From Chrysomallon squamiferum (lineage: Eukaryota > Animalia > Mollusca): a stretch of DNA of 64,000 bases. Below the pieces are notes generated by a model. The model ran no database searches. It saw only the letters and a program-made list of their open reading frames with translations, and was not told the DNA's origin. Below are positions 25,501 to 64,000 of this stretch, one piece after another. A program made the translations under genes and the position numbers. The DNA lies in assembly GCA_012295275.1 (NCBI GenBank), contig CM022672.1:35588001-35652000 (forward strand). The letters are read 5' to 3'. The first letter of the stretch is position 1, and each line of letters opens with the position of its first letter.

Positions 25501-27667
25501 GTAACACAAAATTCAGTTCAGTTTGCTTTAAGAAACAGTCTGTAAATAAAGAAATAATCTTGTAACACAAAATTCAGCTCAGTTTCCTTGAAGAAACAGT
25601 CTGTAAAGAAAGAAATAATCTTGTAACACAAAATTCAGCTTAGTTTGTTTGAAGAAACAGTCTGAAAATAAAGAAATAATCTTGTAATGCAAAATTCAGC
25701 TCAGTTTGCTTGAAGAAACAGTCTGTAAATAAAGAAATAATCTTGTAACACAAAATTCAGTTCAGTTTCCTTGAAGAAACAGTCTGTAAATAAAGAAATA
25801 ATCTTGTAACACAAAATTCAGCTCAAAGAAACAGTCTGTAAAGAAAGAAATAATCTTGTAACACAAAATTCAGCTTAGTTTGTTTGAAGAAACAGTCTGA
25901 AAAGAAATAATCTTGTAATGCAAAATTCAGCTCAGTTTGAGGAAATATTTTGAGGAAACAGACTGCAAATAATGTTGTAAATCACAGTTCAGCTTGTTTT
26001 TTGTGAAGAAACAATCTGTAAAGAAAGAAATGTGTGTGTGTGTGTGTGTGTGAGAATTATACCTCCTCTGTTCACATAAAGACCCTTTTCATTTTTCTCT
26101 CCCTTTATAGCCTTGTTGAGGAGAATGATAGCTTCATCGTAGTAACCCTTCTCAAAGCACTCGACAGCGAAGTCGTTGTATGTGAGTAGTAGTTGACGTT
26201 GAGAGTCAGCGTAGACTGGATCTTCTTCATTGTGTTCACACTTATCCAGAGCAAGCAGGAAGTCATCGATGGCAGCGTTAAAATCATGTAACTTGCGGTG
26301 AAGAGCTCCTCTGAAATATTTAAGTAAATTCTTAGTTGTTACTGAACTAACTAAATCGTCAGGGAAAAAGAATGTTATTACTTTATGGCATACTTCATTA
26401 TTAGTAATGATTGGTTTACTAAAAACTCTAACATGGAAATACACAATAACATATTTCAAGCTCTGTGTGAAAGGTATAAAATCTGGAAAACAGTTTTTCA
26501 AAATGGTGATTATTTTTTTTTAATATACTCATGAAAACTAGTGAATTTAAATAAGATTATTTTAAACATGGAAATCAGTTTTGGTAGGTTTTTATTTTTC
26601 TGTTGTATGATATTTACTGAGTTATTTAATATAAAAATACCTGTGTACATGGTAATCAGCTAGTTATTTAATATAAAATACCTGTGTACATGGTAATATG
26701 CTTTGGCAGGGTTGGTTTCTATAGAGAGAGATTTACTGAGTTATTTAATATAAAATACCTGTGTACATGGTAATCTGCTTTGGCAGGGTTGGTTTCTATA
26801 GAGAGAGATTTACTGAGTTATTTAATATAAAATACCTGTGTACATGGTAATCAGCTAGTTATTTAATATAAAATACCTGTGTACATGGTAATCAGCTTTG
26901 GCAGGGTTGGTTTCTATAGCGAGTGAGATTTTCTGCAGAGCCTCTCTGTGTTTGCCCACCACATTGAGATTGATCGCCTGAGTCTTGTAGTCTGAGGCTC
27001 TGTTCTCTAAATTAATCATCATTGTCTTCGCTTCAGGGTGATCACTGTTGATAGTCAGAGCATCTTTGACATCATAGTAGCTTAGTGTTGTCTGAAAATA
27101 GCATCACGTATGGTTACAACACGTTTGTATGAATATTAATATTTGTTATTAACAATTATCAGAGACGAATGATTAACAAAGAAAAGCAAAGAAAACACAC
27201 AAGCACACAGACTGACACATACACACACATACACATGCAAACAGACAAATATAGACTCACACATCTCACACATACAGACGCATGTGCAAATAGACAAAAA
27301 ACACATACACATGAAAACAGACAGAGAAACGAGAAAATATAAATAATTTATAAATGCTGTGATTTCTGAATTTCTGCCTGTGAATCTCTGCATATAAGAT
27401 TCTTACTGATATGAATATCTCATGACTCTTTTCTGTTTTACTCCATCCTGACATTAATGACAGAGAGACATAAATATACATACCCATATACATACAAAAT
27501 ATATTTAAAATGCATCTTCAACAAAGAATTAAACTCAGATATATATATATCTATATATATATGTCTCTGTGTCTATATGTGTGTGTGTGTCTGTGTGTGT
27601 GAGAGAGAGAGAGAGGTGTGTGAGTAAAATTTCTCTCTCTCACTCTACATATATATATATATATTTA

Positions 27668-36734: not shown

Positions 36735-39700
36735 TTTATATCTGAACTGTAGACAGATATCAAAAACTGAAAATTCTTCATATATGAGGTTCTTTGCAAA
36801 CCTGTACAACCACATTTTTTCACTTGTTGGACTGAATTTGTAAATGTATTGTGTTGTTATTATAAGTAAGTATGCATGTCTTGCCCAAAACCTTTGATAA
36901 CAAATTAGAATTCTCTTTCTCTTTGTCTCTTATTACTGCTGTATCAGGATCCAGACTTAACATGATTTTTTTCAGATGTAATCATCTACATTTAACAAAA
37001 GTAAACTTGATATCTACATAATTTTTTTTTTTTTATCAAAAATGTGCTTTCTAATCCATGTAATCGAAAGGAAACAGATACTGCAAATGTTATTACTGTG
37101 TATATATATATATATATAAAATATACACACACACCTAAATACATAGTAATAGAGGGTTATTATTCATTCTTCATATTTTTCTTTTAAATTTAATGTAATT
37201 GCCAGCCTTTACTGATTAATAAAAAAATTAAATGATGAATTTATATTTGTCAGAACAGTTTTGAATTTATATTTGTCAGAACAGTTTTAAATCTCTCTCA
37301 CACACACACATTCAAATACATACAAATATTGCAACATTCAGCATTATCTAGGTTATTTTGAAATATGTGTGCCAAACTGTCAATGGATAATTAATGTTGG
37401 TTGTACTGAGGAAGATGGCAACATTAAAAATTAACAACACAAGAGAGAGCAATGTTCAGATGAAACATCTCAAATCAGCAGTTAATTACACGCATCAGAG
37501 AAAGCTGTTGTAGCAACAGTGAAATATTCCTGTCTGAAACACACTGGACCGATACCTCCATTTTCTCTGTAAGAAGATATTTTTATTTTCTCTGTAAGAA
37601 GATATTTCTATTTCTCTGTAAGAAGATATTTGTATTTCTCTGTAAGAAGATATTTCTATTTTCTCTGTAAGAAGATATTTCTATTTTCTCTGTAAGAAGA
37701 TATTTGTATTTTCTCTGTAAGAAGATATTTGTATTTTCTCTGTAAGAAGATATTTCTATTTTCTCTGTAAGAAGATATTTTCTATTTTCTCTGTAAGAAG
37801 ATATTTGTATTTCTCTGTAAGAAGATATTTCTATTTTCTCTGTAAGAAGATATTTGTATTTCTCTGTAAGAAGATATTTCTATTTTCTCTGTAAGAAGAT
37901 ATTTGTATTTCTCTGTAAGAAGATATTTGTATTTGTAAGAAGATATTTCTATTTTCTCTGTAAGAAGATATTTGTATTTCTCTGTAAGAAGATATTTCTA
38001 TTTTCTCTGTAAGAAGATATTTGTATTTTCTCTGTAAGAAGATATTTGTATTTCTCTGTAAGAAGATATTTCTATTTTCTCTGTAAGAAGATATTTCTAT
38101 TTTCTATATAAGAAGATATTTGTATTTTCTATATAAGAAGAAAGTTATCTATTCTTTTATACAAGAATGTACTATTTCTGTTTTCTTTTTAAGAAGAAAT
38201 GTATTTGTTTTTATTGAAGAAGAAAATGTATCTTTTTTTTTTTACAAGAAGAAATATTTTTATTTTTTTTATATAAGACTAATATTTCTATTTTCTATGT
38301 AAGAATAAATTTATTTTTCAGCATTCAAAGATGTTATTTCTATTTTCTGAATAATAATAAATTTATTATTTATTATACATTTTCTACATCAGAAGGAGTA
38401 TTCTGTTTTAAAATAATAATGTACAGTGCCACTAATGAATTTGCTAAATATTATTTCATTTGTTATACGAAAGTAAGTTTACAGATAAACTGATATAAAT
38501 CTGCTTTGCTAAGACACTGTTAATAACTATTTGTAATCTTCATACAGTTTGTTTTTATAATATGATTTTCATATCCTCTGTGTTCTAAAAATCTGATGTT
38601 CAGTAATTATTAATATTTTTGAAAAGAAATCTGAAATTTAAAATTAATATTAGATTGAATTAGCTGATAATTAACATTAATATATTGTCTGTTTTTTGTA
38701 GTTTCTTTTATTGTATATCTTAATAAACAGGTCCAAATGTATCTTTGTGGCCTGGATTTTGTTTTTTAAGTGAAGTTCATGAGGGATCTACACTTGTTTT
38801 CTACTGTCTAGTGTCGTTTCATTTCAGAGCAAAGCATAAATAATTAATTCTCTAAAATAATGAGTTTAAATTTCATATGGAAGGTTAATGTGCATTTAGT
38901 TCTGTGTGTGTGTTTATGTGCATATGTGTATGTGTGTGTGTGTGTGTTTCTGTCTCTTTCTTAATCTGGCTGTGTTTTTATATATATTATTATATAGATA
39001 AAGAAAAACAGACACTGAGAAGGGAGAAAATGGTCAAACAAAATGTTCCTCACATTATGTTGATGTTGTTTTTGTTTCTAGGACTGGCTGAAGTCTGCCA
39101 ATGCCTCACTGTCCCAGCTGAAGCAAGTCAGTCCATCTGTGTACAGCATCAGACTTGCAGACAGCGTCAACCTGAGTGCCAACAACATCTTTCACAACGG
39201 CACTCACAAACCAGACACAAGTACTGTACTTAACCAAACAACGTAAGTTCTTTATTGCATTTAGGTCTGCTGTGCATACATGTGAAAACTGCTGTTTTTT
39301 TGTCGGTGTGCATCTGTGTGTATGTGTATCTTTGTGTATGTCTGTATGTCTGTATGTGTATCTTTGTGTATGTCTGTATGTGCATCTGTGTATGTGTATC
39401 TTTGTGTATGTCTGTATGTGTATCTTTGTGTATGTCTGTATGTGCATCTGTGTGTATGTGTATCTTTGTGTATGTCTGTATGTGTATCTTTGTATTTGTA
39501 TGTGCATCTGTGTGTATGTGTATCTTTGTGTATGTCTGTATGTGTATCTTTGTGTATGTCTGTATGTGCATCTGTGTGTATGTGTATCTTTGTGTATCTG
39601 TGTGTATGTCTGTGCATCTGTGTATATGTGTATCTGTGTGTATGTCTGTATGTGCATCTGTGTATGTCTGTATGTGTATCTGTGTATATGTGTATCTTTG

Positions 39701-42700
39701 TGTATGTCTGTATGTGCATCTGTGTATGTCTATGTGCATCTGTGTGTATGTGTATCTTTGTGTATGTATGTGTATCTGTGTATGTCTGTATGTGCATCTG
39801 TGTATATGTGTATCTTTGTGTGTGTATGTCTGTATGTGCATCTGTGTATATGTGTATCTTTGTGTGTGTATGTCTGTATGTGTATCTTTGTGTATATCTG
39901 TATGTTTCTTGTTTGTATGTTTCAGGAACAGCAATGTTTCAGTTTCTTGTTTGCATGTTTCAGTCTCTTGTTTGAATGTTTCAGGAACAGCAATGTTTCA
40001 GTTTCTGATTTGATGAAACACAGTAACAGATTAGCTCGCCCTGCCAGTGCCAAGTGTTGTAGAAGTGCAAGTTTAACCCCCGGCAAAAGGACACGCCCAC
40101 ACAGTGCCAAAAATGCATCAACTGCTGAAAAGAAAAAGCCCCCAATTGGAGGCAGGTTTCCATAGTTACCTTGTTTTTAACACAAGTTATAAAGTATTTA
40201 AATTCTTATCTCATAAAACAAATCTTTCTTATATTTTATAATGTGTATATTTTCATAAATTTGAAACGCTAATATTTATATTATGATTGTTTTATTTAGT
40301 TGCTTTTTTTTGTTGAATTTTTTTATTTTTTTTTTTTTTCATTGCTTGATTTTATTAATTATCACATCTATATTATACCTTTTTAAAACATATATTTTTT
40401 GTTTGACAATTTTTACCTTACTTGGTTTTATTCCAGTTTTATAAATATCAAAGGAAGTGTCGTGTTCTTTTTGTATATGGGAAGGCGTAAATCAAATACT
40501 TTGCTGCTGATTGCAGAACAGTTCACTCAGCAGCAGATTTCCTTTTTCATAATCAGTCCTTTTCTGATTTAAATATAATCACAGATTATACATAATTCAT
40601 TCCTAATTATTATTTACTTATTTATTTAATTATTTACTATTTTCCAATCTTTTTTTTAATGGTCATGAATTAAATATTGAGGAATATATGAAAAAACTAC
40701 AATGTGTGTATTTAATTTTATTTTTTTCAGTGAAGGGTCTGAAGTATGACCAGGCTGGTAAATGTGCACAAGGTGAGGCCCCAGAGGGGTGGGTTGGTCC
40801 CCCCAGGGACTCAAAATGGATGACGTTATCAATATTATTCCAAACCTTCAGTCTGAAGCAGGTATGTATGTCTGTAACTGTTATTTCTGTTTGTGTGTGT
40901 GTGTAAGTCAATATGCAGTTGTATACTTGTGAGTGTGTGTTTGCATGTTGTGTATATCTATGTAGCTGTGTATTTCTGTTTGTCTTTGTGTGTACTTGCA
41001 TATGGTGTGTGTAGTGTTTGATAGTTTGTTTACAAAGAAAAACAATAACTAATTTATATATGTGTGTAAAGCATATAAGATAACACTTCCCTAATAAATA
41101 ATAAGTAAGCAAAGAATTTGCTACTATGATATGCATAATGTTTGCACACACACACACACACACTACAGATATATCACATTTAACAATGGGCTGGTCTTTA
41201 AAGATAGATTGATGTGAACTTACTGTAACAAATCTTTGTGAATATTTTATCATGTTTGTAATCAAAATTATTACAATAATAACAGATTTTCTAGATGTGT
41301 CCAGGTTTGATGGGTGCAATGGAAATGTTCCACCCCCACCCCAAGCCACGCCCGAACCAGAATCAACTCTGGATGGGTTCAGCGAAGTGGAGTATGTATA
41401 ACCATAAAACTTTAAAAACTCAAATAATTTAATTTTTTATTTAATATAAATCATCTTGTCAAGATAAAGTATTTTTCCATTGAAAAAAGTTTTATGATTA
41501 AAAATTTACTGATATACACCAATTAGTGAAAAAATAAAAAAGAATAAAGAAAATACTAAATAAAAGAATACTGCTGTTTCAGATTTGAAATTCAATTCGA
41601 TTAGAATGTTTCTGAATGTCTGATTTGATTCAGTTGGAAAATTACGTGTTCCTGTGGCATATACACTTATAACACACTGCTACACACTGCTACACACTGG
41701 TATTTGAGATGTACTGCTACACACTGGTATTTGAGATGTACTGCTACACACTGGTATTTGAGATGTGTCATGTTTTCTGTTTTCAGATCTGTTTCCTCAG
41801 ACGCTAATGTCGTACTTCTACGTAAACCAACGCAGGACTCAATTCACCTGTCACTTCCCACTGCGGGGGAGGAGCAGGAGGAGGAAGAGGAGGAGTGGAA
41901 TACAGAAAGGTAACCTTACAGTGGAAATATACACATGTATACACACAAACATACAGACACAGACAGTGGAAATATACACATGTATACACACAGACACACA
42001 AATATACAGACACAGACAGTGGAAATATACACATGTATACACACAGACACACAAATATACAGAGACAGACAGTGGAAATATACACATGTATACACACAGA
42101 CACACAAACATACAGACACAGACAGTGGAAATATACACATGTATACACACAGACACACAAATATACAGACACAGACAGTGGAAATATACACATGTATATA
42201 CACAGACACACAAACATACAGACACAGACAGTGGAAATATACACATGTATACACACAGACACACACATATACAGACACAGACAGTGGAAATATACACATG
42301 TATACACACAGACATATAAACATACAGACACAGACAGTGGAAATATATACATGTATACACAAACACACAAACATACAGACACAGACAGTGGAAATATGCA
42401 CATGTATACACACAGACACAGACAGTGGAAATATATACATGTATACACACAGACATATAAACATACAGACACAAACAGTGAAAATATATACATGTATACA
42501 CACAGACATACAAACATACAGACACAGACAGTGGAAATATATACATGTATACACACAGGCACAAACAGAAAAAATATATACATGTATACACACAGACATA
42601 TAAACATACAGACACAAACAGTGAAAATATATACATGTATACACACAGACACACAAACATACAGACACAGACAGTGGAAATATGCACATGTATACATACA

Positions 42701-45700
42701 GACAGAGAAACATATAAACATACAGACACAGAGAGTGGAAATATACACATGTATACACACAGACACAGAAACATATAAACATACAGACACAGACAGTGGA
42801 AATATACACATGTATACACACAGACACACAGACATATAAACATACAGACATAGAGATACGTAAACACAAATACACACACACAAATACACCAAGATACACA
42901 CACACATATATATATACAGGATAACACATAGACATACACAAACATACACACACACACACACACACACACAGATGTACTCACACATGATAACACAACACAC
43001 ACACCTACACACAAACACATACACACAGATGTACACACATGCATGATAACAGAACACACACCTACACACAAACACATACACACAGATGTACACACATGCA
43101 TGATAACACATGACATATACACAGACGTGCACACACACAGATGTGTATATTTTAATTTCTATATTTTTAAGATAAATATTTCATGAATAAATAAATTTGG
43201 TGTAAACAGATTTTTGAGATGTGTGCAGGTTTGAAATAAATATTAACTGAAAGCAAAGATAGTTCAGAAAGTGTGTATGTTTAAAATAGTTTATTAACTG
43301 TTGTTTAAAAATATGTTTAGCCTTTCATAATGGTGTAGATTAATATATATTACAGAAGGCATTGAAAATGAATGGGATAAAGTAATAAGATATTGTAAAA
43401 ATGGTTTTTTTTTAACTTTGTTTAAAGTGTATTTTTTACTCTGTGTATAATTTTCTTCCATAATGAAAAAGCAGTTGTTTTATTGCTTTGTTTTGTGTTT
43501 TAAGATTTATTTCACAAATTTATTTTATAAGCTTTATTAATGGTAAACTAAAAACAGAAACAACCCATACATCATGTTTGTTTCATAGTTTTTACAAGAT
43601 GTATAGTATTAATATTAAAAATTTCAAAATTGGCATTTGTCGATGTTGGTTTTATTTAATTTGACAGAGTTCTACAAGAAGTGCAGACTCTGACAAACAA
43701 GAGACAAGAAGTGAGAGTGAAGTATCACCACAGAGCTTCCTTGCAGGCCACAGAGAAACAGGCTGCGATACAGGAAGACGAGCGTCCCAGGTCGAAAAGT
43801 CCCAGTTCATACAACATCAACGAAAGAACAATAACTCTGCTGCCAAGTTCGACAGACTCAAAAGTGAGTCACGCTCGAAGTAACCCGACTGAGAGTGACA
43901 AGGGTGTGATGATCCGCGAAGACAAGAACCTGACATTCCAGATCACCCCGAGAAACCGAGGACACAAAGTGAACTACAAGATAGCCAAGTGCTACTCGAA
44001 TCTCAGGTCGAGAAGTAGGAAGCTGGACTTCACTCACGTGAGAAGCAGAGTGAATTCTGGGATTGATGTGCGTACAGTGATTAATGACTGCAAAACCAAA
44101 AGGATAACTGAACCGTCTAATTTGAATAACAGTTTACAGCTAGAGTTAGGCATGCAGGTGAAACCACTTAAAACAAATACTGGCAACACTTCCCCGTCCT
44201 CTGTTCCCATAGTAACAGTGAAGTACGAAGATGTGGATAAGCCAGTGAAACGAGGGAAGAAACCTGAAATCGTCACCGTGGTGTCGCAGTACATGTCTGA
44301 AAGTGAGGACGAATCAGAACACAGCAACAGAAATGACCGTTCAGCTGTGAGCAGAAGTCGGTCGAACTTGTCCAAAAATTACTACGAGGTTGCCATGAGA
44401 ACGGAACAAGGTAAAATGACAGGAGACAATGAAGAGAGTTCTCCTCCAGTGCTGTACAAAACCATCAAAACAATTGAGTTTGATGAGGCAGGCTACTCGC
44501 CTAAAGAAAGCACAGTGAAAAGTATCATCCCAGGAACAGTATCAACGACCAAACCAAGACAGAAACTGGCTGTGTCTGTTGACTACCTGGGCAGACAGAG
44601 GAGTTCCTCAGTTTCATCCAACACTTCAGTGAGAAAAGTAAGTCACACGTCTGTGTTATGTCTGTGCTTCATACTGTGTGTTGTGTCTGTGTATATGTGT
44701 GTTGTGTCTGTGTATTCTGTGTCTGTTGACTACCTGGGCAGACAGAGGAGTTCCTCAGTGTCATCCAACACTTCAGTGAGAAAAGTAAGTCATATATGTG
44801 TGTTATGTCTGTGCTTCATGCTGTGTATTGTGTCTGTGTATATGTGTGTTGTGTCTGTGTATTCTGTGTCTGTTGACTACCTGGGCAGACAGAGGAGTTC
44901 CTCAGTGTCATCCAACACTTCAGTGAGAAAAGTAAGTCACATGTCTGTGTTATGTCTGTGCTTCATGCTGTGTGTTGTGTGTTGTGTCTGTGTATGTGTG
45001 TTGTGTCTGTGTATTCTGTGTCTGTTGACTACCTGGGCAGACAGAGGAGTTCCTCAGTGTCATCCAACACTTCAGTGAGAAAAGTAAGTCACATGTCTGT
45101 GTTATGTCTGTGCTTCATGCTGTGTGTATGTGTGTTGTGTCTGTGTATATGTGTGTTGTGTCTGTGTATTCTGTGTCTGTTGACTACCTGGGCAGACAGA
45201 GGAGTTCCTCAGTGTCATCCAACACTTCAGTGAGAAAAGTAAGTCACATGTCTGTGTTATGTCTGTGCTTCATGCTGTGTGTATGTGTGTTGTGTCTGTG
45301 TATATGTGTGTTGTGTCTGTGTATTCTGTGTCTGTTGACTACCTGGGCAGACAGAGGAGTTCTTCAGTGAGAAAAGTAAGTCAGACTGTGTCTGTTGACT
45401 ACCTGGGCAGACAGAGGAGTTCCTCAGTGTCATCCAACACTTCAGTGAGAAAAGTAAGTCACATGTCTGTGTTATGTCTGTGCTTCATGCTGTGTGTATG
45501 TGTGTTGTGTCTGTGTATATGTGTGTTGTGTCTGTGTATTCTGTGTCTGTTGACTACCTGGGCAGACAGAGGAGTTCTTCAGTGAGAAAAGTAAGTCACA
45601 CGTCTGTGTTATGTCTGTGCTTCATGCTGTGTGCATGTGTGTTGTGTCTGTGTATTCTGTGTCTGTTGACTACCTGGGCAGACAGAGGAGTTCCTCAGTG

Positions 45701-47790
45701 TCATCCAACACTTCAGTGAGAAAAGTAAGTCACATGTGTGTGTTATGTCTGTGCTTCATGCTGTGTATATGTGTGTTGTGTCTGTGTATTCTGTGTCTGT
45801 TGACTGTTCAAGCAGACAGAGGAGTTCCTCAGTGTCATCCAACACTTCAGTGAGAAAAGTAAGTCACATGTCTGTGTTATGTCTGTGCTTCATGCTGTGT
45901 GGTGTGTTGTGTCTGTGTATATGTGTGTTGTGTTTTGTAAATTCTGTGTCTGTTGACTACCTGGGCAGACAGAGGAGTTCTTCAGTGAGAAAATATTTAT
46001 TCTTTTGTCTGTTTGTTTTGTCTTTTTTTCATGCTGTGTGCATGTGTGTTGTGTCTGTGTATTCTGTGTCTGTTGACTACCTGGGCAGACAGAGGAGTTC
46101 CTCAGTGTCATCCAACACTTCAGTGAGAAAAGTAAGTCACATATGTGTGTTATGTCTGTGCTTCATGCTGTGTATATGTGTGTTGTGTCTGTGTATTCTG
46201 TGTCTGTTGACTACCTGGGCAGACAGAGGAGTTCCTCAGTGTCATCCAACACTTCAGTGAGAAAAGTAAGTCACACGTCTGTGTTATGTCTGTGCTTCAT
46301 GCTGTGTGTTGTGTCTGCATGTGTGTGTTAGCCTGTTCAAGCGTGTGTGTGTACATGAGGCATGTCACTATTTGTGTTTCGTGTGTACTTGCTGGTCACT
46401 GTGCTGTGCATGCTTCTGTGTTTTATAAACATACAGTTATAATTTACAACATAATGAAAATATTTATTCTTTTGGGGTATTTGTTTTTTAATTTTTTTCA
46501 AAAGTATTATGGCTGACAAATATTAATTTGTAGTTACTATAGTTACATCAGTCAGATGACAAACTGATACTGCATTAGGTAAATGAGTGCCACAGTAACT
46601 ACTCTTTTACAGTCAGCAGCAAAGGATCTTTTATTTATATTGTCAAACTCTCTTGACTAGGAAAGGACAAGACATAGTCTTTAATAAACCAGTCTCCAGG
46701 CACTTGTTTGACTGGAAAACAGGCAAATAAATACACGACAAAACTGGATATTTCACAGCAAAACCTTTGTATCAGACAAACTATCATATAAATAACCAGT
46801 AGTACATGACAGAATAAATTCAGTCTCTTTAATCTTGTTTATACCAATCTATAAAGATTACTATTAGTTATGTAATCTGTTTATTGAAATGACAGAAATT
46901 AGAACTTTAGCCTGTTAACAAAATTTTGTTATGGTTTTAGGATGACCACAGGTCAATTCAGATCCCTGGACCATCACAAGAGGAAAATGTTTCAAAATCA
47001 GAACAGAGTTTGAAAAAGGAAAACACTGAAGATAAAAAGCTGGACGACAAACTTCTAAACATGATGTCAAAATGGGCAAAGGTCAGTCTCAGTGTGAGCA
47101 GAATAATGTGTTGAGTGATATGTGATCATGTGTTGTATGTAATAATAATGTGGTAATGTGTGATATGTGATCATGTGTTGTATGTAATAATAATGTGGTA
47201 ATGTGTGATATGTGATCATGTATTGTATGTAATAATATGTGGTAATGTGTGATATGTGATGATGTGTTGTATGTAATAATGTGGTAATGTGTGATATGTG
47301 ATCATGTGTTGTATGTAATAATAATATGTGGAAATGTGTGATATGTGATGATGTGTTGTATGTAATAATAATCTGGTAATGTGTGATATGTGATGATATG
47401 TTGTATGTAATAACAATGTGGTAATGTGTGATATGTGATCATGTGTTGTATGTAATAATAATATGTGGTAATGTGTGATATGTGATCATGTGTTGTATGT
47501 AATAATATGGTAATGTGTGATATGTGATCATGTGTTGTATGTAATAATATGGTAATGTGTGATATGTGATCATGTGTTGTATGTAATAATAATATGTGTT
47601 AATGTGTGATATCTGATCATGTGTTGTATGTAATAATATGTTGTATTATGTGATATGTGGTCATACAGTATATGATTACATATCATACATAATCACATAT
47701 TATTATATAAAACATGCATGTACCATTTATAATTCATTCAGACATCCACAGTGTCAGAAAATTACAGAGTCAAGGAAAGAAAACACTCAT

Positions 47791-48793: not shown

Positions 48794-51700
48794 GTTGTTA
48801 TTATTATGATTATTATGATTATTATTATTAATATTTTGCAATGTGTAAATGATGTTTAAAATTTTTGTTTTTTCGTTTTGTTACAGAGTCGACCTGACAG
48901 TGGCAGCACAGTTAAATCTCGACCAGCTTCTTGTTTTCAGTCTTCTCTTCAGAGAATGAAGTAAGACAAAGTTTATATCCAAGTTTATAGACATTTCAGA
49001 GAATGAAGTAAGACAAAGTTTATATCCAAGTTTATAGACATTTCAGAGAATGAAGTAAGACAAAGTTTATATCCAAGTTTATAGACATTTCAGAGAATGA
49101 AGTAAGACAAAGTTTATATCCAAGTTTATAGACATTTCAGAGAATGAAGTAAGACAAAGTTTATATCCAAGTTTATAGACATTTCAGTAAGTGAAGTAAG
49201 ACAAAGTTTATAGATATTTCAGAGAATGAAGTAAGACAAAGTTTATAGATATTTCAGTAAGTGAAGTAAGACAAAGTTTATAGATATTTCAGAGAATGAA
49301 GTAAGACAAAGTTTATAGATATTTCAGTAAGTGAAGTAAGACAAAGTTTATAGATATTTCAGAGAATGAAGTAAGACAAAGTTTATAGATATTTCAGAGA
49401 ATGAAGTAAGACAAAGTTTATATCCAAGTTTATAGACATTTCAGTAAGTGAAGTAAGACAAAGTTTATAGATATTTCAGTAAGTGAAGTAAGACAAAGTT
49501 TATAGATATTTCAGAGAATGAAGTAAGACAAAATTTATAGATATTCAGATAATGAAGTAAGACAAAGTTTATAGATATTTCAGTAAATGAAGTAAGACAA
49601 AGTTTATAGATATTTCAGAGAATGAAGTAAGACAAACATTGTATCCGTTTATAGCTATTTCAGTAAATGAAGTAAGACACACATTTTATCCAAGTTTATA
49701 GCTATTTCAGTAAATGAAGTAAGTCAAAGTTTATAGATATTTCAGAGAATGAAGTAAGACACACATTTTATCCAAGTTTATAGATATTTCAGAGAATGAA
49801 GTAAGACAAACATTCTATCCAAGTTTATAGATATTTCAGTAAATGAAGTAAGTCAAAGTTTATAGATATTTCAGAGAATGAAGTAAGACAAACATTGTAT
49901 CCAAGTTTATAGCTATTTCAGTAAATGAAGTAAGTCAAAGTTTATAGATATTTCAGAGAATGAAGTAAGACAAACATTGTATCCAAGTTTATAGCTATTT
50001 CAGTAAATGAAGTAAGTCAAAGTTTATAGATATTTCAGAGAATGAAGTAAGACAAAGTTTATAGATATTTCAGAGAATGAAGTAAGACAAACATTGTATC
50101 CAAGTTTATAGCTATTTCAGTAAATGAAGTAAGACAAACATTCTATCCAAGTTTATAGATATTTCAGAGAATGAAGTAAGACAAACATTGTATCCAAGTT
50201 TATAGCTATTTCAGTAAATGAAGTAAGACACACATTTTATCCAAGTTTATAGCTATTTCAGTATGATAATACTATTTGCATACATACTCATACACATATA
50301 GATTCACCAATATACACATATTTAGAGAGTGTCACATTAATGTTACATCCAGCTTCAATCCAGTTGGTTGAGACTTCAGTGTGACTGGCCATTAAATCAG
50401 TTACAGTACTTGATGCAGTGAGACTGCTGTCAGATCCTGTGACAGATTGTACTGTAGTCCCAGCCGTCAATCCTAGGACTTTTCTTTAATGCTTAAAATA
50501 TCACAATTTACTGTGATGCCATTCATTAACATGACCTAAGAAATCTTAACTTTTCTCTAGAGTAGTTTCAGGTGATTTTGCACTTTCTGAATGCAGGAAA
50601 TAGCAAAGAAACATCATCAAATACCGCACTTTTTGAAGTGTTGTCATGGAAAGAAAATATTTAAAAGAGAAGATTGCATTGTGAAATGATGATAAATTAC
50701 TGAAATAAAAATGATTAAAAATGAAACTTTTTGTTTTCATAATTCACCATTCTTACCAGTGTACATTGTCAGTAGATGAAGGCAGTTTATAATGACTGTT
50801 CACTCATCTTTGATTACAACTTGGAAACTGTACAGACTGCTGTTAACACCTTAATATTTCATCTCTTGATAACTGGAAATCTTGACACTGAAATAGCACT
50901 GACCATTAAGCCAGCCTCATAAAACAAGGGTAAAAACATCAAGTTAAAGTCTCAGCCTACAGTGAACTCAGATCTACTTTTGTATATGTTTTTTTTTTTT
51001 CTGAACACTTCAGAGTAAGTCACAAAAAATAGTGTTTTGTTAACTTTATTTTATTAACTGTTTTCTTCAGGTCGTTCGACACTCGGCGAATTCAGTCAGC
51101 TGCCCTAGCTGCAGAAAGAGAACACAGTAGGTAGACCTAGTTTATAGTACACCAGTGTGTATAGTATACCTAGTTTATAGTACACCAGTGTGTATAGTAT
51201 ACCTAGTTTATAGTACACCAGTGTGTATAGTATAACCTACTTTATAGTACACCAGTGTGTATAGTATAACCTACTTTATAGTACACCAGTGTGTATAGTA
51301 TACCTAGTTTATAGCACACCAGTGTGTATAGTATACCTAGTTTATAGCACACCAGTGTGTATAGTATACCTAGTTTATAGTACACCAGTGTGTATAGTAT
51401 ACCTAGTTTATAGTACACCAGTGTGTATAGTATACCTAGTTTATAGTACACCAGTGTGTATAGTACACCTAGTTTATAGTACACCAGTGTGTATAGTACA
51501 CCTAGTTTATAGTACACCAGTGTGTATAGTACACCTAGTTTATAGTACACCAGTGTGTATAGTACACCTAGTTTATAGTACACCAGTGTGTATAGTATAA
51601 CCTAGTTTATAGTACACCAGTGTGTATAGTATAACCTAGTTTATAGTACACCAGTGTGTATAGTATAACCTAGTTTATAGTACACCAGTGTGTATAGTAT

Positions 51701-54700
51701 ACCTAGTTTATAGTACACCAGTATGTATAGTATAACCTAGTTTATAGTACACCAGTGTGTATAGTATACCTAGTTTATAGTACACCAGTGTGTATAGTAT
51801 AACCTAGTTTATAGTACACCAGTGTGTATAGTATAACCTAGTTTATAGTACACCAGTGTGTATAGTACACCTAGTTTATAGTACACCAGTGTGTATAGTA
51901 TACCTAGTTTATAGTATACCTAGTTTATAGTACACCAGTGTGTATAGTACACCTAGTTTATAGTACACCAGTGTGTATAATACACCTAGTTTATAGTACA
52001 CCAGTGTGTATAGTATACCTAGTTTATAGTATACCTAGTTTATAGTACACCAGTGTGTATAATACACCTAGTTTATAGTACACCAGTGTGTATAGTATAA
52101 CCTAGTTTATAGTACACCAGTGTGTATAGTATACCTAGTTTATAGTATACCTAGTTTATAGTACACCTAGTTTATAGTACACCAGTGTGTATAGTACACC
52201 TAGTTTATAGTACACCAGTGTGTATAGTATACCTAGTTTATAGTACACCAGAGTTTATCAAACAAAACTGTTTTATAATTTTACTTATTTATTTAGTTAA
52301 AATGAATCAAAAGTCTAGAAATATATGATATAGCACACCTAGTTTATCAAACAAAACTGTTTTATAATTTTACTTATTTAGTTAAAATGATAAAAAAATG
52401 CACAAATATATGATATAGCACACCTAGTTTATCAAACAAAACTGTTTATAATTTTACTTATTTATTTAGTTAAAATGAATCAAAAATCTAGAAATAGATG
52501 ATATAGCACACCTAGTTTATCAAACAAAACTGTTTTATAATTTTACTTATTTATTTGGTTAAAATGAATCAAAAATCTAGAAATAGATCATATAGGTACA
52601 CCAGTGTTAATCAGGCAGACAGAATTATTGTATAAATGGACATATGACTTTGTTTTCGAATTTTATGTGGATCAGAGATCTAGTTTATGTATTTCTGTTA
52701 GAACATGGACCAGAGCACTACTTTCAGAGTATTTATAAAAAAAAACATTATTAACATTTAATTTAATTTATTTTCTTTTTTAAGTGAAATTATCATGAGC
52801 AGAAGACAGTAATCACTTTGAAAAATATTGAATTTTCATTAAGAGAAGCATTATATAATTTGAAACATATTTATTTTTTGTTAAAGAAAACATATAATTT
52901 GCAAAATGCTGATTTTTTGTTAATGGAATGGAGGTGTAAAATTTTAAATGTTTACTTTAAAGGGAAATATGCTGTGTACACGCGGTCGTTTGCTCGACGC
53001 CAGATCATGCAGAGTCCTCCTCCACCAACAGACGTCGTTTACCTCAACACCAAGAAACATCCAGTAAGTAGTTGTTTACCTCAACACCAAGAAACATCCA
53101 GTAAGTAGTTGTTTACCTCAACACCAAGAAACATCCAGTAAGTAGTTGTTTACCTCAACATGAAGAAACATCCAGTAAGTAGTTGTTTACCTTAACACTA
53201 AGAAACATCCAGTAAGTAGTTGTTTACCTCAACACCAAGAAACATCCAGTAAGTAGTTGTTTACCTCAACACCAAGAAACATCCAGTAAGTAGTTTTATA
53301 CCTTAACACCAAGAAACATCCAGTAAGTAGTTGTTTACCTTAACACAAAGAAACATCCAGTAAGTAGTTGTTTACCTCAACATGAACAAACATCCAGTAA
53401 GTAGTTGTTTACCGTAACATGAACAAACATCCAGTAAGTAGTTGTTTACCTCAACACCAAGAAACATCCAATAAGTAGTTGTTTACCTTAACACGAAGAA
53501 ACATCCAGTAAGTAGTTTTTTACCTTAACACCAAGAAACATCCAGTAAGTAGTTGTTTACCTTAACACAAAGAAACATCCAGTAAGTAGTTTTATACCTT
53601 AACACCAAGAAACATCCAGTAAGTAGTTTTATATCTCAACACAAAGAAACATCCAGTAAGTAGTTGTTTACCTTAACACAAAGAAACATCCAGTAAGTAG
53701 TTTTATACCTTAACACCAAGAAACATCCAGTAAGTAGTTTTATACCTCAACACAAAGAAACATCCAGTAAGTAGTTGTTTACCTCAACATGAAGAAACAT
53801 CCAGTAAGTAGTTGTTTACCTTAACACTAAGAAACATCCAGTAAGTAGTTTTATACCTTAACACCAAGAAACATCCAGTAAGTAGTTGTTTACCTCAACA
53901 CCAAGAAACATCCAGTAAGTAGTTGTTTACCTCAACACCAAGAAACATCCAGTAAGTAGTTGTTTACCTCAACACCAAAAAACATCCAGTAAGTAGTTTT
54001 ATACCTTAACACCAAGAAACATCCAGTAAGTAGTTGTTTACCTTAACACAAAGAAACATCCAGTAAGTAGTTTTATACCTTAACACCAAGAAACATTCAG
54101 TAAGTAGTTGTTTACCTTAATACCAAGAAACATCCAGTAAGTAGTTTTATATCTTAACACCAAGAAACATCCAGTAAGTAGTTGTTTACCGTAACACAAA
54201 GAAACATCCAGTAAGTAGTTTTATACCTTAACACCAAGAAACATCCAGTAAGTAGTTGTTTACCTTAACACGAAGAAACATCCAGTAAGTAGTTGTTTAC
54301 CTCAACATGAACAAACATCCAGTAAGTAGTTGTTTACCTTAACACGAAGAAACATCCAGTAAGTAGTTTTATACCTTAACACCAAGAAACATCCAGTAAG
54401 TAGTTGTTTACCTTAACACGAAGAAACATCCAGTAAGTAGTTTTATACCTTAACACCAAGAAACATTCAGTAAGTAGTTTTATACCTTAACACCAAGAAA
54501 CATCCAGTAAGTAGTTTTATACCTTAACACCAAGAAACATCCAGTAAGTAGTTTTATACCTTAACACCAAGAAACATCCAGTAAGTAGTTGTTTACCTCA
54601 ACATGAAGAAACATCCAGTAAGTAGTTTTATATCTCAACACAAAGAAACATCCAGTAAGTAGTTGTTTACCTTAATACCAAGAAACATCCAGTAAGTAGT

Positions 54701-57700
54701 TGTTTACCTCAACATGAAGAAACATCCAGTAAGTAGTTGTTTACCTCAACACCAAGAAACATCCAGTAAGTAGTTGTTTACCTCAACATGAACAAACATC
54801 CAGTAAGTAGTTGTTTACCTCAACATGAAGAAACATCCAGTAAGTAGTTGTTTACCTCAACACCAAGAAACATCCAGTAAGTAGTTGTTTACCTCAACAT
54901 GAACAAACATCCAGTAAGTAGTTGTTTACCTCAACATGAAGAAACATCCAGTAAGTAGTTGTTTACCTCAACACCAAGAAACATCCAGTAAGTAGTTGTT
55001 TACCTTAACACAAAGAAACATCCAGTAAGTAGTTGTTTACCTTAACACGAAGAAACATCCAGTAAGTAGTTGTTTACCTTAACACCAAGAAACATTCAGT
55101 AAGTAGTTTTATACCTTAACACCAAGAAACATTCAGTAAGTAGTTTTATACCTTAACACCAAGAAACATCCAGTAAGTAGTTTTATACCTTAACACCAAG
55201 AAACATCCAGTAAGTAGTTTTATACCTTAACACCAAGAAACATCCAGTAAGTAGTTGTTTACCTTAATACCAAGAAACATCCAGTAAGTAGTTGTTTACC
55301 TCAACATGAAGAAACATCCAGTAAGTAGTTGTTTACCTCAACACCAAGAAACATCCAGTAAGTAGTTGTTTACCTCAACATGAACAAACATCCAGTAAGT
55401 AGTTGTTTACCTCAACATGAAGAAACACCCAGTAAGTAGTTGTTTACCTTAACACCAAGAAACATCCAGTAAGTAGTTGTTTACCGTAACACGAAGAAAC
55501 ATCCAGTAAGTAGTTGTTTACCTCAACACCAAGAAACATCCAGTAAGTAGTTGTTTACCTTAACATGAAGAAACATCCAGTAAGTAGTTGTTTACCTCAA
55601 CATGAAGAAACATCCAGTAAGTAGTTGTTTACCTCAACACCAAGAAACATCCAGTAAGTAGTTTTATATCTCAACACAAAGAAACATCCAGTAAGTAGTT
55701 GTTTACCTTAACACAAAGAAACATCCAGTAAGTAGTTTTATACCTTAACACCAAGAAACATCCAGTAAGTAGTTTTATACCTTAACACCAAGAAACATCC
55801 AGTAAGTAGTTGTTTACCTCAACACCAAGAAACATCCAGTAAGTAGTTTTATACCTTAACACAAAGAAACATCCAGTAAGTAGTTGTTTACCTCAACACG
55901 AAGAAACATCCAGTAAGTAGTTTTATACCTTAACACCAAGAAACATCCAGTAAGTAGTTGTTTACCGTAACACGAAGAAACACCCAGTAAGTAGTTTTAT
56001 ACCTTAACACCAAGAAACATTCAGTAAGTAGTTTTATACCTTAACACCAAGAAACACCCAGTAAGTAGTTTTATACCTTAATACCAAGAAACATCCAGTA
56101 AGTAGTTTTATACCTTAACACCAAGAAACATCCAGTAAGTAGTTGTTTACCTCAACATGAAGAAACATCCAGTAAGTAGTTTTATACCTTAACACCAAGA
56201 AACATCCAGTAAGTAGTTGTTTACCTCAACACCAAGAAACATCCAGTAAGTAGTTGTTTACCTCAACACGAAGAAACATCCAGTAAGTAGTTGTTTACCT
56301 CAACATGAAGAAACATCCAGTAAGTAGTTGTTTACCTTAACACAAAGAAACATCCAGTAAGTAGTTTTATACCTTAACACCAAGAAACATCCAGTAAGTA
56401 GTTTTATACCTTAACACCAAGAAACATCCAGTAAGTAGTTGTTTACCTCAACACCAAGAAACATCCAGTAAGTAGTTGTTTACCTCAACACCAAGAAACA
56501 TCCAGTAAGTAGTTGTTTACCTCAACATGAAGAAACATCCAGTAAGTAGTTGTTTACCTTAACACAAAGAAACATCCAGTAAGTAGTTTTTTACCTTAAC
56601 ACCAAGAAACATCCAGTAAGTAGTTTTATACCTTAACACCAAGAAACATCCAGTAAGTAGTTGTTTACCTCAACACCAAGAAATATCCAGTAAGTAGTTG
56701 TTTACCTCAACATGAAGAAATATCCAGTAAGTAGTTTTATACCTTAACACCAAGAAACATCCAGTAAGTAGTTTTTCTTGTTTGAATATTTTATTTGAAG
56801 TGCAATATGTTGTTATATGAATTAAAATTTGAAAAATATGTTGTTTCTATTTTATTCTCAATATTCAAAATTAAAAATTATAATTATATTCATTAAAATT
56901 AACAAATACAATTTTGCTCTTTTATTTTCATTCTTCAAGATACAGATATTAATTACAGTCATCATATTTAATTTGTTTTAATTAAAATGTTTCCAGGATG
57001 TGGATACTGAGGAAAGTCTTGCCTGTCAGGAAATGCAGAACAAACTTGCCTCCCTTGGTCTGAACATCAGAAAAGAAACACTAGAAAGGTTTTCTGCTTT
57101 ACTTTGTAGACTGTCACTGAGTGTCAAACTGAATTTTATTTCTTTCAGCTGTTAATTTGTAAATTGTCATCTTGTACTGAATAAAACCTAACTTTATTTA
57201 CTTTGGCAGTTACCATTTATATTTTAATTCTTCAATCTGTCAATTTCAAAATTATCATTATATTGTTACCCATTGAACAAAATTAATCTTGGCTAATTAA
57301 TTTCTATATTACTTGTGTATGTCCATCTACTGAATTAACATGAAGATTTAACTTTTTCTTGAAAATATTGTTATTTCAAAAAAACTTTTTTTTTTTTTTT
57401 TCTTTTTTGTCAAGATAGTCTTTGTTAGAAGTGGATTGTATATATATTTTTTTTATACACAAATTATTTAATATTTTTTGGAAAGCAGCATAAAACAAAA
57501 ACTATAGAGCATTTTATCAATAAATCTGTTTATGTCTACTTAGAACATTAAATACAAACTAAGCTTTATAATATTTGATTTGTACGTTTTAGACATTTTA
57601 CGAAAAAAGTTTGAGACAAATAGATTGTTATTTTTATTTTTTTTATGGTATTTTTTTTTTATCCTTTACATTAATAAGTTTCTACATCTGCTGTTCAGCC

Positions 57701-59905
57701 ATATATTGATTCTGGTTGAAACCAAATTTATCATGTCTATTAATACATTGTTTATGCCTATATGGAAATAAAATACAAAAAACTTTTTTCGCTTTCATTT
57801 TTAAATCAGATGTAATATAACTAATAATAAATAATTAAGTCATTGTTTGGGATTAATCAAAATTTGATTCCATTTAGCTACAAAACATTTTATACAGATT
57901 TTCATAAAGCAGCATACAAATATTATGGCTTGCGATCTCAGTTGAAAATGTAGTTACAAATTAATGTTTATTGTCTCTAAAAGTTAGAATTACAAATTAT
58001 GATAACAGTTTACATTCATATTACTCAGCATGTTAAAGCATGATGACATTTTTAATATATATATTTTTTTTTTATATTCAATGAAATCATTTTAAAATTT
58101 AATAAAATATTAAAGTTACAAGAATACAATCTAAATATGGAGAATAACAATACAATGTGTGACAATATGAAATAGAGTTATATTTCTTGTAAATCATGGA
58201 TTAATATATAATAGAATATCTAACTTTTAATAATTTAGATTTGTGATGTTCTCACTGTTATTAAATGTTAATGCTTGTTTACAGAGCTCTTTTTCCGCCG
58301 TCTGGTAAAACTCTTCATTACGAAATATCTCGAGACGTCATTCGTTCTCCTGCGTCAGGGTAAATGTTACACTTATTAGTACATGTTTATTTAATTTTTA
58401 CATTTATTAGTACATGTTTATTTAATTTTTACATTTATTAGTACGTTTATTTAATTTTTACACTTATTAGTACATGTTTATTTAATTTTACACTTATTAG
58501 TACATGTTTATTTAATTTTACACTTATTAGTACATGTTTATTTAATTTTACACTTATTAGTACATGTTTAATTTTTACACTTATTAGTACATGTTTATTT
58601 AATTTTTACACTTATTAGTACATGTTTATTTAATTTTTACACTTATTAGTACATGTTTATTTAATTTTACACTTAGTACATGATGTTTATTTAATTTTAC
58701 ATTTATTAGTACATGATGTTTATTTAATTTTACATTATTAGTACATGATGCTTAATTAATTTTACATTGATTAATACATTATGTTTATTTAATTTTACAT
58801 TTATTAGTACATGATGTTTATTTAATTTTACATTTATTACAAATAATAAATTATGTTTATTAAAATGTTACATTTTTACAAATAATACATTCTTTAATTA
58901 GAAAAAGAAAGAAAAATAACAAAATAAATGCCATTAATTATTATATTTAGAAAAAAGATTATTTTGTTATCATAGTGATTTGAAAGAAATTAATAAAATA
59001 AATAATATTCAAAGTGAACAGTTGTTTTATCTTATTTTATTTTTAGACTTCTAAGTCATCCAAAGTTCTGGCTTCCTACAGAATACATGAAAGTGAAAAT
59101 AGCAGAAAAACAGCTAGGTAAATGATAATCATTGTCATTATCTATTATTGTTATCATTTTTGTTATTGTTACCATTAATATTTTTATTTTTATTATTTTT
59201 TTTTGTTTTGTTATTATTATTGTTATTGTTATTGCTAGTGTTATTATTATTATCATCATTTTGTAATTATTGTTGTTGTTAATACCCTTATTATTATTAT
59301 GGTTATTATTACTATCATTGTCCTATTTTTATTTTTATTCAATATCATTATCATCACTATTATTATTATAATCATCAGTTATAAATTGCTAAATTACAGA
59401 TATTTAGGACTTTATTTCATACACTAATTGTCAGTATTTTATACAATAATTTATATTATAGTTGTTATTTTATATATCAACTGCTAATATTGTATATAAC
59501 AGTCAATATTTTTTGCAAATGACAATATTTTATATGATAGTTGATATTTTATACAATAGCTGACATTTTATAGGCTAGACAGTATTTTATACAATAACTG
59601 TTTAATAGTTGATATTAATATTACAGTTAATATTTTTATGTAAGTGTTCATTGCTGATATTTATAATATTTTTATGTAAGTGTTCATTGCTGATATTTGT
59701 AATATTTTTATGTAAGTGTTCATTACTGATGTTTGTAATGTATAAAAATGTGATTGCAGCGAGAGCAGAACACACGATGTGGTTGCAGAAGAGGGAGGAG
59801 GAAAGAGAAGTGAAATCAGCGCTGGGACTCACAACATCCGCGCAACAAAAACAAAGAAAAACAAAAAGAAAGGAAAGAAGAAAACAAAACGACCTGCGAG
59901 TGTGA
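35324..59905 (+). CDS. Uncharacterised, largely disordered Ser/Lys/Arg-rich protein (~840-870 aa); exons 35324-35347(?), 39082-39242, 39985-40151, 40731-40772 (or -40861), 41295-41391, 41787-41909, 43668-44637, 46941-47081, 48182-48364, 48887-48960, 51071-51126, 52963-53063, 56997-57088, 58285-58359, 59047-59117, 59760-59905
   Basis: Exons from 41295 onward splice in phase with canonical sites and no stops, including a 970-nt exon and the C-terminal block [27 protein letters not shown]...[10 protein letters not shown]. The 5' end is less certain: it needs a GC donor, and the start codon is ambiguous. Confidence 0.75.
37560..38120 (+). repeat. 24-25-bp tandem repeat (~23 copies) containing a donor-like site
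   Basis: ttttctct|gtaagaagatattt(c/g)ta. Confidence 0.93.
39305..39905. repeat. TG-rich compound minisatellite filling an intron
   Basis: tgtgtatgtctgtatgtg(t/c)atct units; source of several spurious ORFs. Confidence 0.9.
41917..42850. repeat. 45-53-bp CA-rich tandem repeat starting just after donor 41910
   Basis: acagtggaaatatacacatgtatacacacagacacacaaacatacagacacag. Confidence 0.93.
44570..46315 (+). repeat. ~135-155-bp tandem repeat (~13 copies) made of the last ~68 nt of an exon, the donor and intron sequence
   Basis: tgtgtctgttgactacctgggcagacagaggagttcctcagtgtcatccaacacttcagtgagaaaa|gtaagtcac; donors at 44638, 44785, 44932 and onward. Confidence 0.96.
47115..47660. repeat. ~45-bp tandem repeat (~12 copies) just downstream of donor 47082
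   Basis: tgatatgtgatcatgtgttgtatgtaataataatgtggtaatgtg. Confidence 0.92.
48590..48830. repeat. (ATT)n degenerate microsatellite
   Basis: Seen directly. Confidence 0.88.
48948..50262 (+). repeat. ~35-47-bp tandem repeat (~30 copies) containing an exon end plus donor
   Basis: ttcagagaatgaa|gtaagacaaagtttatatccaagtttatagacat. Confidence 0.95.
51137..52252. repeat. 33-bp minisatellite (~33 copies) starting 10 nt after donor 51127
   Basis: cctagtttatagtacaccagtgtgtatagtata. Confidence 0.96.
52253..52595. repeat. ~88-bp tandem repeat (x4)
   Basis: agtttatcaaacaaaactgttttataattttacttattt... at ~52253, 52341, 52425 and 52514. Confidence 0.9.
53037..56775 (+). repeat. 37-bp satellite (~100 copies) made of the last 27 nt of an exon plus donor GTAAGT
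   Basis: gtttacctcaacaccaagaaacatcca|gtaagtagtt; the first copy is the coding exon end VYLNTKKHP. Confidence 0.97.
58368..58838. repeat. ~31-bp AT-rich tandem repeat starting just after donor 58360
   Basis: ttacacttattagtacatgtttatttaattt. Confidence 0.92.
59628..59738. repeat. 36-bp repeat (x3) just upstream of the last acceptor
   Basis: aatatttttatgtaagtgttcattgctgatatttat. Confidence 0.85.
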
Positions 59906-62411: not shown

Positions 62412-63218
62412 ACAAATGCATTACAGCTCTTTACCATCCACATGGCATCAATGTTTCATTAAAAAAAATGTGAATAATTTATAATTATAACCTTTGTGTC
62501 ATGACCTTCGTGTTGTGAAGAAATCATCTTTTATCTACACTTCAACAAATCTTCAGCAAGACAGACTGAATAGAAACAGACCAGTATGTGAGTATTGGAT
62601 TTCTTCTCAGATGTCAGGTAGTCCAGCATCATTTTGGCTATGTGGGAGACAGATGTTTTAGTTTTGGACTTGTCACAGTGATGTAAAGAAGTACGTTTTT
62701 AAAATATCAGCTTTGATGTCAAGAAAATCACATCTAGTTTCAACAATATCTGATCATTTCAACATTACTGCCGTTCATAATACTTCAGACTGAGATATAT
62801 TCTTTCTCTAACACATTTTACAAGAGGTAAAAATTCAAATCTCAGAAACCAGTTGCTGTATGTTACATTAAAGTATAACAATTCAACTTGTATAAATTTT
62901 ATTCAAATTTATTTCACACAACACTGCAGGCTATGTACATTTCGTTTTCAGAGCAAAAACAAACAAAAATATACAAAAGTTCAAAAACATTTAAATACAT
63001 CTGCACATTTATATAAAGTTTTAACTTGTCTATGTACATCAGATACATTAACTTTCTAAAGAAAACAAATATACACTTAAAAATAGTTATTCATAATAAT
63101 ACGATATATGGCATCCTTCTAATTATGTCAATATTATTAAAGACAAAATATTTTTTAAATTTTTTTAAAATGTTAATTTTTCTTTATAAATTCTGAGCTG
63201 AAGATGTTTGTCGTGTTT

Positions 63219-64000
63219 TTAACTTCCGTTGCCGTTGATTTGGTTCTTGCTTCCTCGCGGGTACTCTTGACGTAAGTGATGACTGTTGATGACTGATTTC
63301 ACGCATGCGTCTATCACGTTTGGGAAGGGCATCCTGTCTGGCAGAGTTTCTGCCCCTGCTTTGAGCGGGTCGAAGCACAGCATGGTATCACATGCACTGT
63401 CATTTCGCTTCTTGCCGCCAATTAAGATGATGTTTCCTCGGAACTGAACCGCCCCGAAATGAACTCGCCCAAAATTTTCCACTTTACCGATGGTGCGACA
63501 TCCTCCGTCCTCGGAGAATTCAATGACGTCACCATCGGTGGTGATGACGAAAACTGCCGAATCACAAACGACTGTCCTGGTGAGGCGACAGGCGAACGGG
63601 AGGTCAGTGAAGTGTGACGACTGACCAACTCTCGTGTCGAAACACTGGATCGCTGGCGTGTTCCGGTTGTTACGCTGAGCACCACCGAAAGTGAAAATCT
63701 TCTCGCCAATCACAGAGGACGACACCATTTCCACCGGGATGGGCAGATCTCCAGCCGTGGACCACTTGCCGGTGTTGATGCTGTATTTCTCTATTGACGA
63801 GATCACTTTGTTTCCCACTGGCAGGTTTCTGTTGTAGCCGCCGAGGACGTAGATGGAGTCTCTGACGGCCACCATTCCGTGACGAGACCGGCCCTGAGCC
63901 ATCTGTTCACACTCTCGCCAGTCGTTGCTTTCGTTGTTGTACTTGAACAGTTTCGGCCATTTTCTGCTTCCTCCTGACAGATAGATATTGTTGGCATAGG
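63219..64000 (-). CDS. Kelch-repeat protein (KLHL-like), C-terminal beta-propeller, 5'-truncated by the window edge
   Basis: The frame is open from the window end: NNIYLSGG...W, GRSRHGMVAVRDSIYVLGG...IEKYSINTGKW, KIFTFGG, NIILIGG. These are kelch GG/Y/W signatures. Confidence 0.9.
   Translation of the reverse strand, partial: YANNIYLSGGSRKWPKLFKYNNESNDWRECEQMAQGRSRHGMVAVRDSIYVLGGYNRNLPVGNKVISSIEKYSINTGKWSTAGDLPIPVEMVSSSVIGEKIFTFGGAQRNNRNTPAIQCFDTRVGQSSHFTDLPFACRLTRTVVCDSAVFVITTDGDVIEFSEDGGCRTIGKVENFGRVHFGAVQFRGNIILIGGKKRNDSACDTMLCFDPLKAGAETLPDRMPFPNVIDACVKSVINSHHLRQEYPRGSKNQINGNGS

Follow-up and report, generated by a model that had tools for sequence, protein, structure and literature searches.

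Minisatellites that straddle an exon–intron boundary, and so reiterate a splice signal inside the intron, have been described in human genes and in lancelets. In intron 7 of human F7, a 37-bp variable number tandem repeat of 5–9 units carries identical donors, and splicing takes place at the most upstream of them (Borensztajn et al. 2006, PMC1557585). F7 minigenes, as described in the available parts of that report, showed that the pseudo-sites compete only at perfect consensus and become functional once the first site is mutated. The same text gives reiterated donors for intron 2 of 6-16 (25 pseudo-sites), intron 13 of CBS (15–20), LMNB2 (10–15) and intron 4 of PDGF (16–18); among these human junction-spanning minisatellites, the first donor is used alone or together with two near pseudo-sites. 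In lancelets, tandem duplications of boundaries, or 'mirages', occur at several loci per genome (Adh3, the globins BflGb6/9, TnC and PGBD5) and leave splicing undisturbed, according to the accessible text of two reports (PMC3087553, PMC3902484). Here we describe such a minisatellite of unusual size in a 64,000-nucleotide (nt) stretch of the mollusc Chrysomallon squamiferum (assembly GCA_012295275.1, contig CM022672.1, positions 35,588,001 to 35,652,000, forward strand), hereafter the window. It lies in a gene for an uncharacterised protein and belongs to the F7-type, mirage class: its units are in tandem, the first spans the boundary, the splice signal is reiterated, and the dominant messenger RNA (mRNA) is made from the outermost site.

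The locus shares with F7 the boundary-spanning first unit, the identical pseudo-donors and splicing at the most upstream one; the common period of 37 is a coincidence, and we claim no shared sequence. The F7 unit takes 4 nt from the exon and 33 nt from the intron and occurs 5–9 times, whereas the snail unit takes 27 and 10 and its 101 copies occupy 94% of the intron. F7 pseudo-sites work when the first is mutated, whereas those of the snail are known from sequence alone. As in 6-16, CBS, LMNB2 and PDGF, a donor is reiterated by a junction-spanning minisatellite (10–26 times there), and the snail copy number is about four times the largest among these human cases (101 versus 5–26). 6-16 and CBS also use two pseudo-sites, whereas at the resolution of assembled contigs donor 1 alone is seen in use in the snail. 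Lancelet mirages are likewise minisatellite-like boundary duplications in an invertebrate host, but those of the globins have units of 10–160 bp in 3–6 copies, against 37 nt in 101 copies here; they affect both boundaries, whereas the excess in the snail window is at donors, and allelic and somatic length instability is reported for the lancelet. These comparisons refer to the parts of the cited reports that were available, as does the statement that PMC10078293 holds nothing on reiterated donors. A search of the mollusc and gastropod literature, with subscription papers outside its coverage, found no report of a junction-spanning minisatellite. As a single locus, this is an extreme case of a known oddity.

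A 101-copy array that begins astride an exon–intron boundary

The minisatellite (53037–56773) has a period of 37, 101.0 copies, 92% matches and 0% indels by Tandem Repeats Finder. Its first 27 nt are the end of a 101-nt coding exon (52963–53063), and the remaining 10 nt of the first unit are the start of the 3,933-nt intron 53064–56996, which ends in an acceptor AG at 56995–56996. Sites in donor phase number 101, run from 53064 to 56764 and are spaced by exactly 37 nt in 100/100 intervals. The array takes up the first 3,710 nt of the intron (94.3%), in good agreement with the roughly 100 copies and 95% of the initial annotation, and leaves 223 nt of unique sequence at the 3′ end (56774–56996, acceptor included), which is likely to be the remainder of a short ancestral intron.

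The authentic 5′ splice site, CCA/GTAAGT (hexamer at 53064–53069, the slash marking the junction), is followed by 100 pseudo-donors (53101–56769), of which 99 read GTAAGT. The hexamer is thus kept in 100/101 units; the single exception, ATAAGT in unit 12 at position 53471, is where the initial annotation had placed it. That annotation also held that GTAAGT pairs perfectly with the U1 small nuclear RNA, which stands for +1 to +6 only, because −2 and −1 mismatch the consensus; against MAG/GTRAGT (PMC1557585), the donor matches at 7/9 positions.

The units are free of indels and fall into 29 types, and their 16 variant alleles are arranged as a mosaic. Blocks of four units recur five times, compared with a mean of 0.34 and a maximum of 4 in 500 shuffles, and blocks of three recur 11 times, compared with a maximum of 10. 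How far a unit has diverged from the exon copy shows no trend with its place in the array.

Splicing at the first donor in the dominant RNA

Public sequencing runs listed for an upstream exon of the host gene number 11, and the contigs of four of them (X1, X4, X7 and X8) were compared with 52600–53110. Run X8 (RNA, study P2) gave a spliced contig of 2,117 nt at depth 14.9, and run X1 (study P1, listed as 'DNA?' yet spliced) gave one of 903 nt at depth 13.9; both cover exactly 52963–53064, the last G of which is shared with the next exon. On one side their loose ends carry the end of exon 51071–51126 (donor at 51127), and on the other the start of exon 56997–57088. These contigs join the three exons and so show that exon 52963–53063 is transcribed, that splicing takes place at its first donor and that the array is cut out. 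The evidence speaks for the dominant form, since assembled contigs lose rare forms and are blind to substrates of nonsense-mediated decay (NMD).

Spliced contigs thus come from two of the four runs, each joined at donor 1; the other two are X7, an RNA run in which the exon is uncovered, and X4, a DNA run. In none of the four runs does a contig depart from the reference at donor 2 and continue into exon sequence. In X4, 51 contigs lie on the unit with the same variant letters and a summed depth of up to 20215, which makes the unit real and multicopy; this depth is no copy number, as the unique flank is uncovered and offers no baseline.

The initial annotation had named non-expression of the exon as grounds for setting its ideas aside, and the spliced contigs cover that exon. 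Of its suggestions, choice of the first donor is supported by these contigs from two studies and matches the behaviour of human F7, and the F7-type precedents and the lancelet mirages run counter to its premise that competition between donors normally leads to mis-splicing. The first donor is still dominant with 99 identical competitors spread over 3.7 kb, which extends the F7 result, obtained with 4–8 competitors, both in copy number and to a mollusc.

The host gene and its orthologue

The host gene (39082–59906, plus strand) encodes an uncharacterised protein with relatives in molluscs; 15 coding exons were found, the first coding exon not being among them. A search with the exon peptide led to one protein, P0001, an uncharacterised protein of 936 amino acids from the vent snail Gigantopelta aegis. 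Its residues 776–808 are identical to the translation of exon 52963–53063 at 31/33 positions, it crosses the array-bearing junction without an insert, so that the same join is made in the orthologue, and it also matches the upstream and downstream exons and most others between 39082 and 59836. Among 4283 candidates, 7 other proteins are related to the C-terminal part of P0001; they come from abalone, Batillaria, scallops, a mussel and Solemya. Pfam returned no family for 5/5 exon peptides of the host gene or for P0001, and when metagenomes were scanned with P0001, 0 of 36 pattern matches were confirmed, which leaves no related locus.

The nine residues encoded by the exon part of the unit are identical in the G. 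aegis orthologue. This identity shows that the array arose from the end of the exon rather than the exon from the array.

Comparison with P0001 also bears on another intron of the gene: the frame closes only if the intron starts with GC at 40152, not with GT at 40156, which suggests a GC–AG intron at 40152.

A probably neutral expansion

At this locus, a 37-nt minisatellite begins with a unit that lies astride a real exon–intron boundary, and the assembled RNA is spliced at the first copy and sheds the others as part of the intron. We consider it probable that the array is neutral repeat DNA and that it grew from one small tandem duplication. A 37-nt duplication across the boundary would have been followed by expansion and mixing of units through slippage or unequal exchange, as the absence of indels, the mosaic of alleles and the excess of multi-unit blocks over shuffles suggest. 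Donor 1 would then be chosen by position, being the first donor 3′ of the acceptor at 52962, at the end of a 101-nt exon and with no stronger copy after it; the F7 precedent and exon definition are our reasons for this view. A later copy in F7 competes only with a perfect consensus, and the snail copies match it at 7/9 positions. Rare transcripts that leak to later donors would carry a premature stop, and NMD would remove them. Tandem repeats make up 42% of the window; they are reported to account for 10.17% of one related vent snail genome (PMC7736800).

Two other accounts of donor choice were rejected. Masking of the pseudo-donors by RNA structure was set aside, as 53000–53290 folds worse than all 200 shuffles (z +3.35). 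Recursive splicing was set aside as well: 0/29 unit types have AG directly before GT, and the donor is preceded by an A-rich stretch rather than a pyrimidine tract.

A functional role of the array is unsupported by our analysis. The initial annotation had singled out GTAAGT as almost invariant, with variation in other columns, yet 24/37 columns of the unit are invariant, and 15 of these belong to its exon part. Variability tracks base type: it affects 10/14 G/C columns and 3/23 A/T columns (p 0.0008). Within the hexamer 1/6 columns are variable, and in the rest of the unit 12/31 (p 0.30); permutation within the array gave p 0.25–0.31 by columns or alleles and 0.06–0.08 by mismatch counts, which are non-independent. 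Per-column conservation, which the initial annotation put forward as the test of a functional role, is thus non-significant for the hexamer within the array, and tests pooled over arrays disagree. In an ungapped test of the donor arrays of the window, with the array at 37.6 kb left out and the small arrays ascertained by a donor-centred probe, 2/42 hexamer columns were variable compared with 42/205 others (p 0.008), a signal that we do not take at face value. Whole-array alignments with a rotation null, weakened by degenerate end units and by the mixed 41/77-nt units of the array at donor 26876, gave pooled p values of 0.33–0.74 and no excess conservation of the hexamer. In nine donor-free control arrays, between 0 and 54% of 6-column windows are fully invariant, and long invariant blocks occur in these arrays too. 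Taken together, the tests leave a weak hint, and no demonstration, that selection may retain the donor.

Several observations weigh against a neutral array that is spliced at its first copy. The 10 intronic columns, a block that takes in four bases beyond the hexamer, carry 1/16 variant alleles, a borderline result (by columns or alleles p 0.05–0.06; by counts, which are non-independent, 0.009). When a block of hexamer length was slid to eight positions in the ungapped pooled analysis, variability was lowest at the donor hexamer (3/42, compared with 5–14/42), and GT is retained in 146/147 copies across seven correctly phased arrays. Donor repeats are commoner in the window than chance predicts, an excess that neutral birth at random sites leaves without an explanation. 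On the RNA side, X1 (depth 3.56) and X7 (4.48 and 3.1) yield low-depth contigs made of array alone, and in X7 the exon is uncovered. The blindness of contigs to rare isoforms and NMD substrates counts here too, and contig depths are not taken as expression ratios; a flag on runs X1 and X4 marks them as possible sources of the window DNA.

Donors of the window often lie in repeats

Across three genes of the window, the first unit of a repeat includes 7 of 27 donors: 44638, 48961 and 53064 on the plus strand, and 31168, 29183, 28505 and 26876 on the minus strand. This compares with 2.8% of 5723 intronic positions (p 7e-6), or 6.6% of positions without an upstream copy (p 0.0015), and with donor 53064 left out the count is 6/26 (p 7e-5 and 0.006). 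At the six further donors, the boundary is duplicated into the following intron in 2 to about 29 copies. Two belong to the host gene: an array with a unit of about 147 nt and about 12 units (44570–46314, plus strand) spans donor 44638, and one with 47/35-nt units, about 29 in number (48948–50261, plus strand), spans donor 48961. Acceptors show no excess (2/26), and the donor signal peaks between −12 and +20 and is gone by +45. In these counts, three boundaries of a G-patch gene are placed one base off and one host-gene donor probably lies 4 nt further upstream; none of them was counted as a mirage.

Such a pattern would be expected if pausing, R-loops or a composition step at 5′ splice sites seeded tandem duplications, which would make the array a by-product of splicing. 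This explanation adds to the neutral one rather than replacing it, and the restriction of the excess to donors favours it. It is drawn, however, from a single 64-kb window with three genes, selected for holding such an array, in which positions are non-independent and most junctions are based on sequence and orthology rather than RNA (the RNA check covers 51126/52963 and 53063/56997). We therefore hold a contribution of splicing to be possible but doubtful, and regard the excess as a lead from one selected window. The broader proposition, that throughout the genome 5′ splice sites are the favoured birthplace of tandem arrays, which keep their donors intact up to 100 copies and are seeded or stabilised by the splicing machinery, is at present improbable. 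The excess is nonetheless the more valuable lead: if true genome-wide, it would bear on the origin of minisatellites and on how introns are gained through duplicated junctions, and if splicing does seed arrays, the genome would offer a natural collection of donor arrays, hundreds of them and of graded copy number, in which to study first-come choice and U1 loading.

Regulatory and protective roles

The array could instead tune gene output: leaky choice of donor 2 or a later one would lead to a premature stop and destruction of the transcript, in proportions set by allele length or splicing conditions. The coding consequences are those foreseen by the initial annotation. Translation shows that use of donor 2 shifts the frame to an early stop, and that use of donors 3 and 4 includes the in-frame TAG at 53106–53108, which any transcript extended beyond donor 2 would reach; further introns follow 3′. 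Leakage has precedents in 6-16 and CBS, in which splicing takes place at two pseudo-sites as well as at the authentic one (PMC1557585, available text), and the low-depth array contigs of X1 and X7 are what it might leave behind. Against this, only donor-1 joins were seen, and X8 has no array contig at an mRNA depth of 14.9. The first donor alone is used in F7, LMNB2 and PDGF, by the available account in PMC1557585, and as the known leaks reach the nearest copies, copies 4–101 would contribute little. Tuning by leakage is accordingly unlikely, and the neutral, first-copy explanation accommodates rare leakage as a minor loss.

Less likely still is a selected array that loads U1 and, as the initial annotation had also proposed, shields the nascent RNA from premature polyadenylation, or that aids elongation. 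GTAAGT is kept in 100/101 copies, the unit RNA is unstructured and hence accessible (200/200 shuffles fold at least as well), and there is the weak hint of donor retention described above. However, polyadenylation hexamers are absent from the array: AATAAA occurs nowhere in the intron, and ATTAAA occurs four times (56821, 56870, 56892 and 56981), each within the unique tail. U1 protection has a reach such that, without the array, the authentic donor would adjoin that tail and cover it. The pooled whole-array alignments show no excess conservation, 11/14 donors of the host gene manage without such an array, and none of the matches listed in a search of the telescripting and repeat literature (10 of 11) describes a U1-loading repeat device.

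That the array is an assembly artefact, far shorter or absent in the animal, is hardly credible: X4 leaves its copy number uncalibrated, but the 29 distinct unit types stand in non-random order and the X4 contigs carry the same variant letters at great summed depth.

Other arrays and genes of the window

Four arrays of the host gene (51131–52258, 58363–58839, 41941–42420 and 47115–47664) begin 3–35 nt 3′ of a donor and exclude the exon, so that they start at the 5′ ends of introns. At 37560–38197, a 25-nt array carries a donor-like TCT/GTAAGA in 22/26 units and decays at its far end; judged from its sequence, it may follow the first exon of the host gene.

Two arrays lie on the acceptor side in a gene on the minus strand with TPR repeats, which may be TTC16-like. 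One, within 25192–25939, has a 61-nt unit across acceptor 25238 with 12 upstream copies; the other, at 21217–21608, has a 19-nt unit that ends in the pyrimidines and CAG of the acceptor.

Near the start of the window, an apparently intron-free frame at about 4300–6560 (minus strand), presumably TRIM-like, has an N-terminal RING-like cysteine pattern and adjoins the G-patch-like gene on the plus strand. At the other end, a GC-richer, coding-like stretch at about 63200–64000 (minus strand), kelch-like by eye, is cut by the end of the window.

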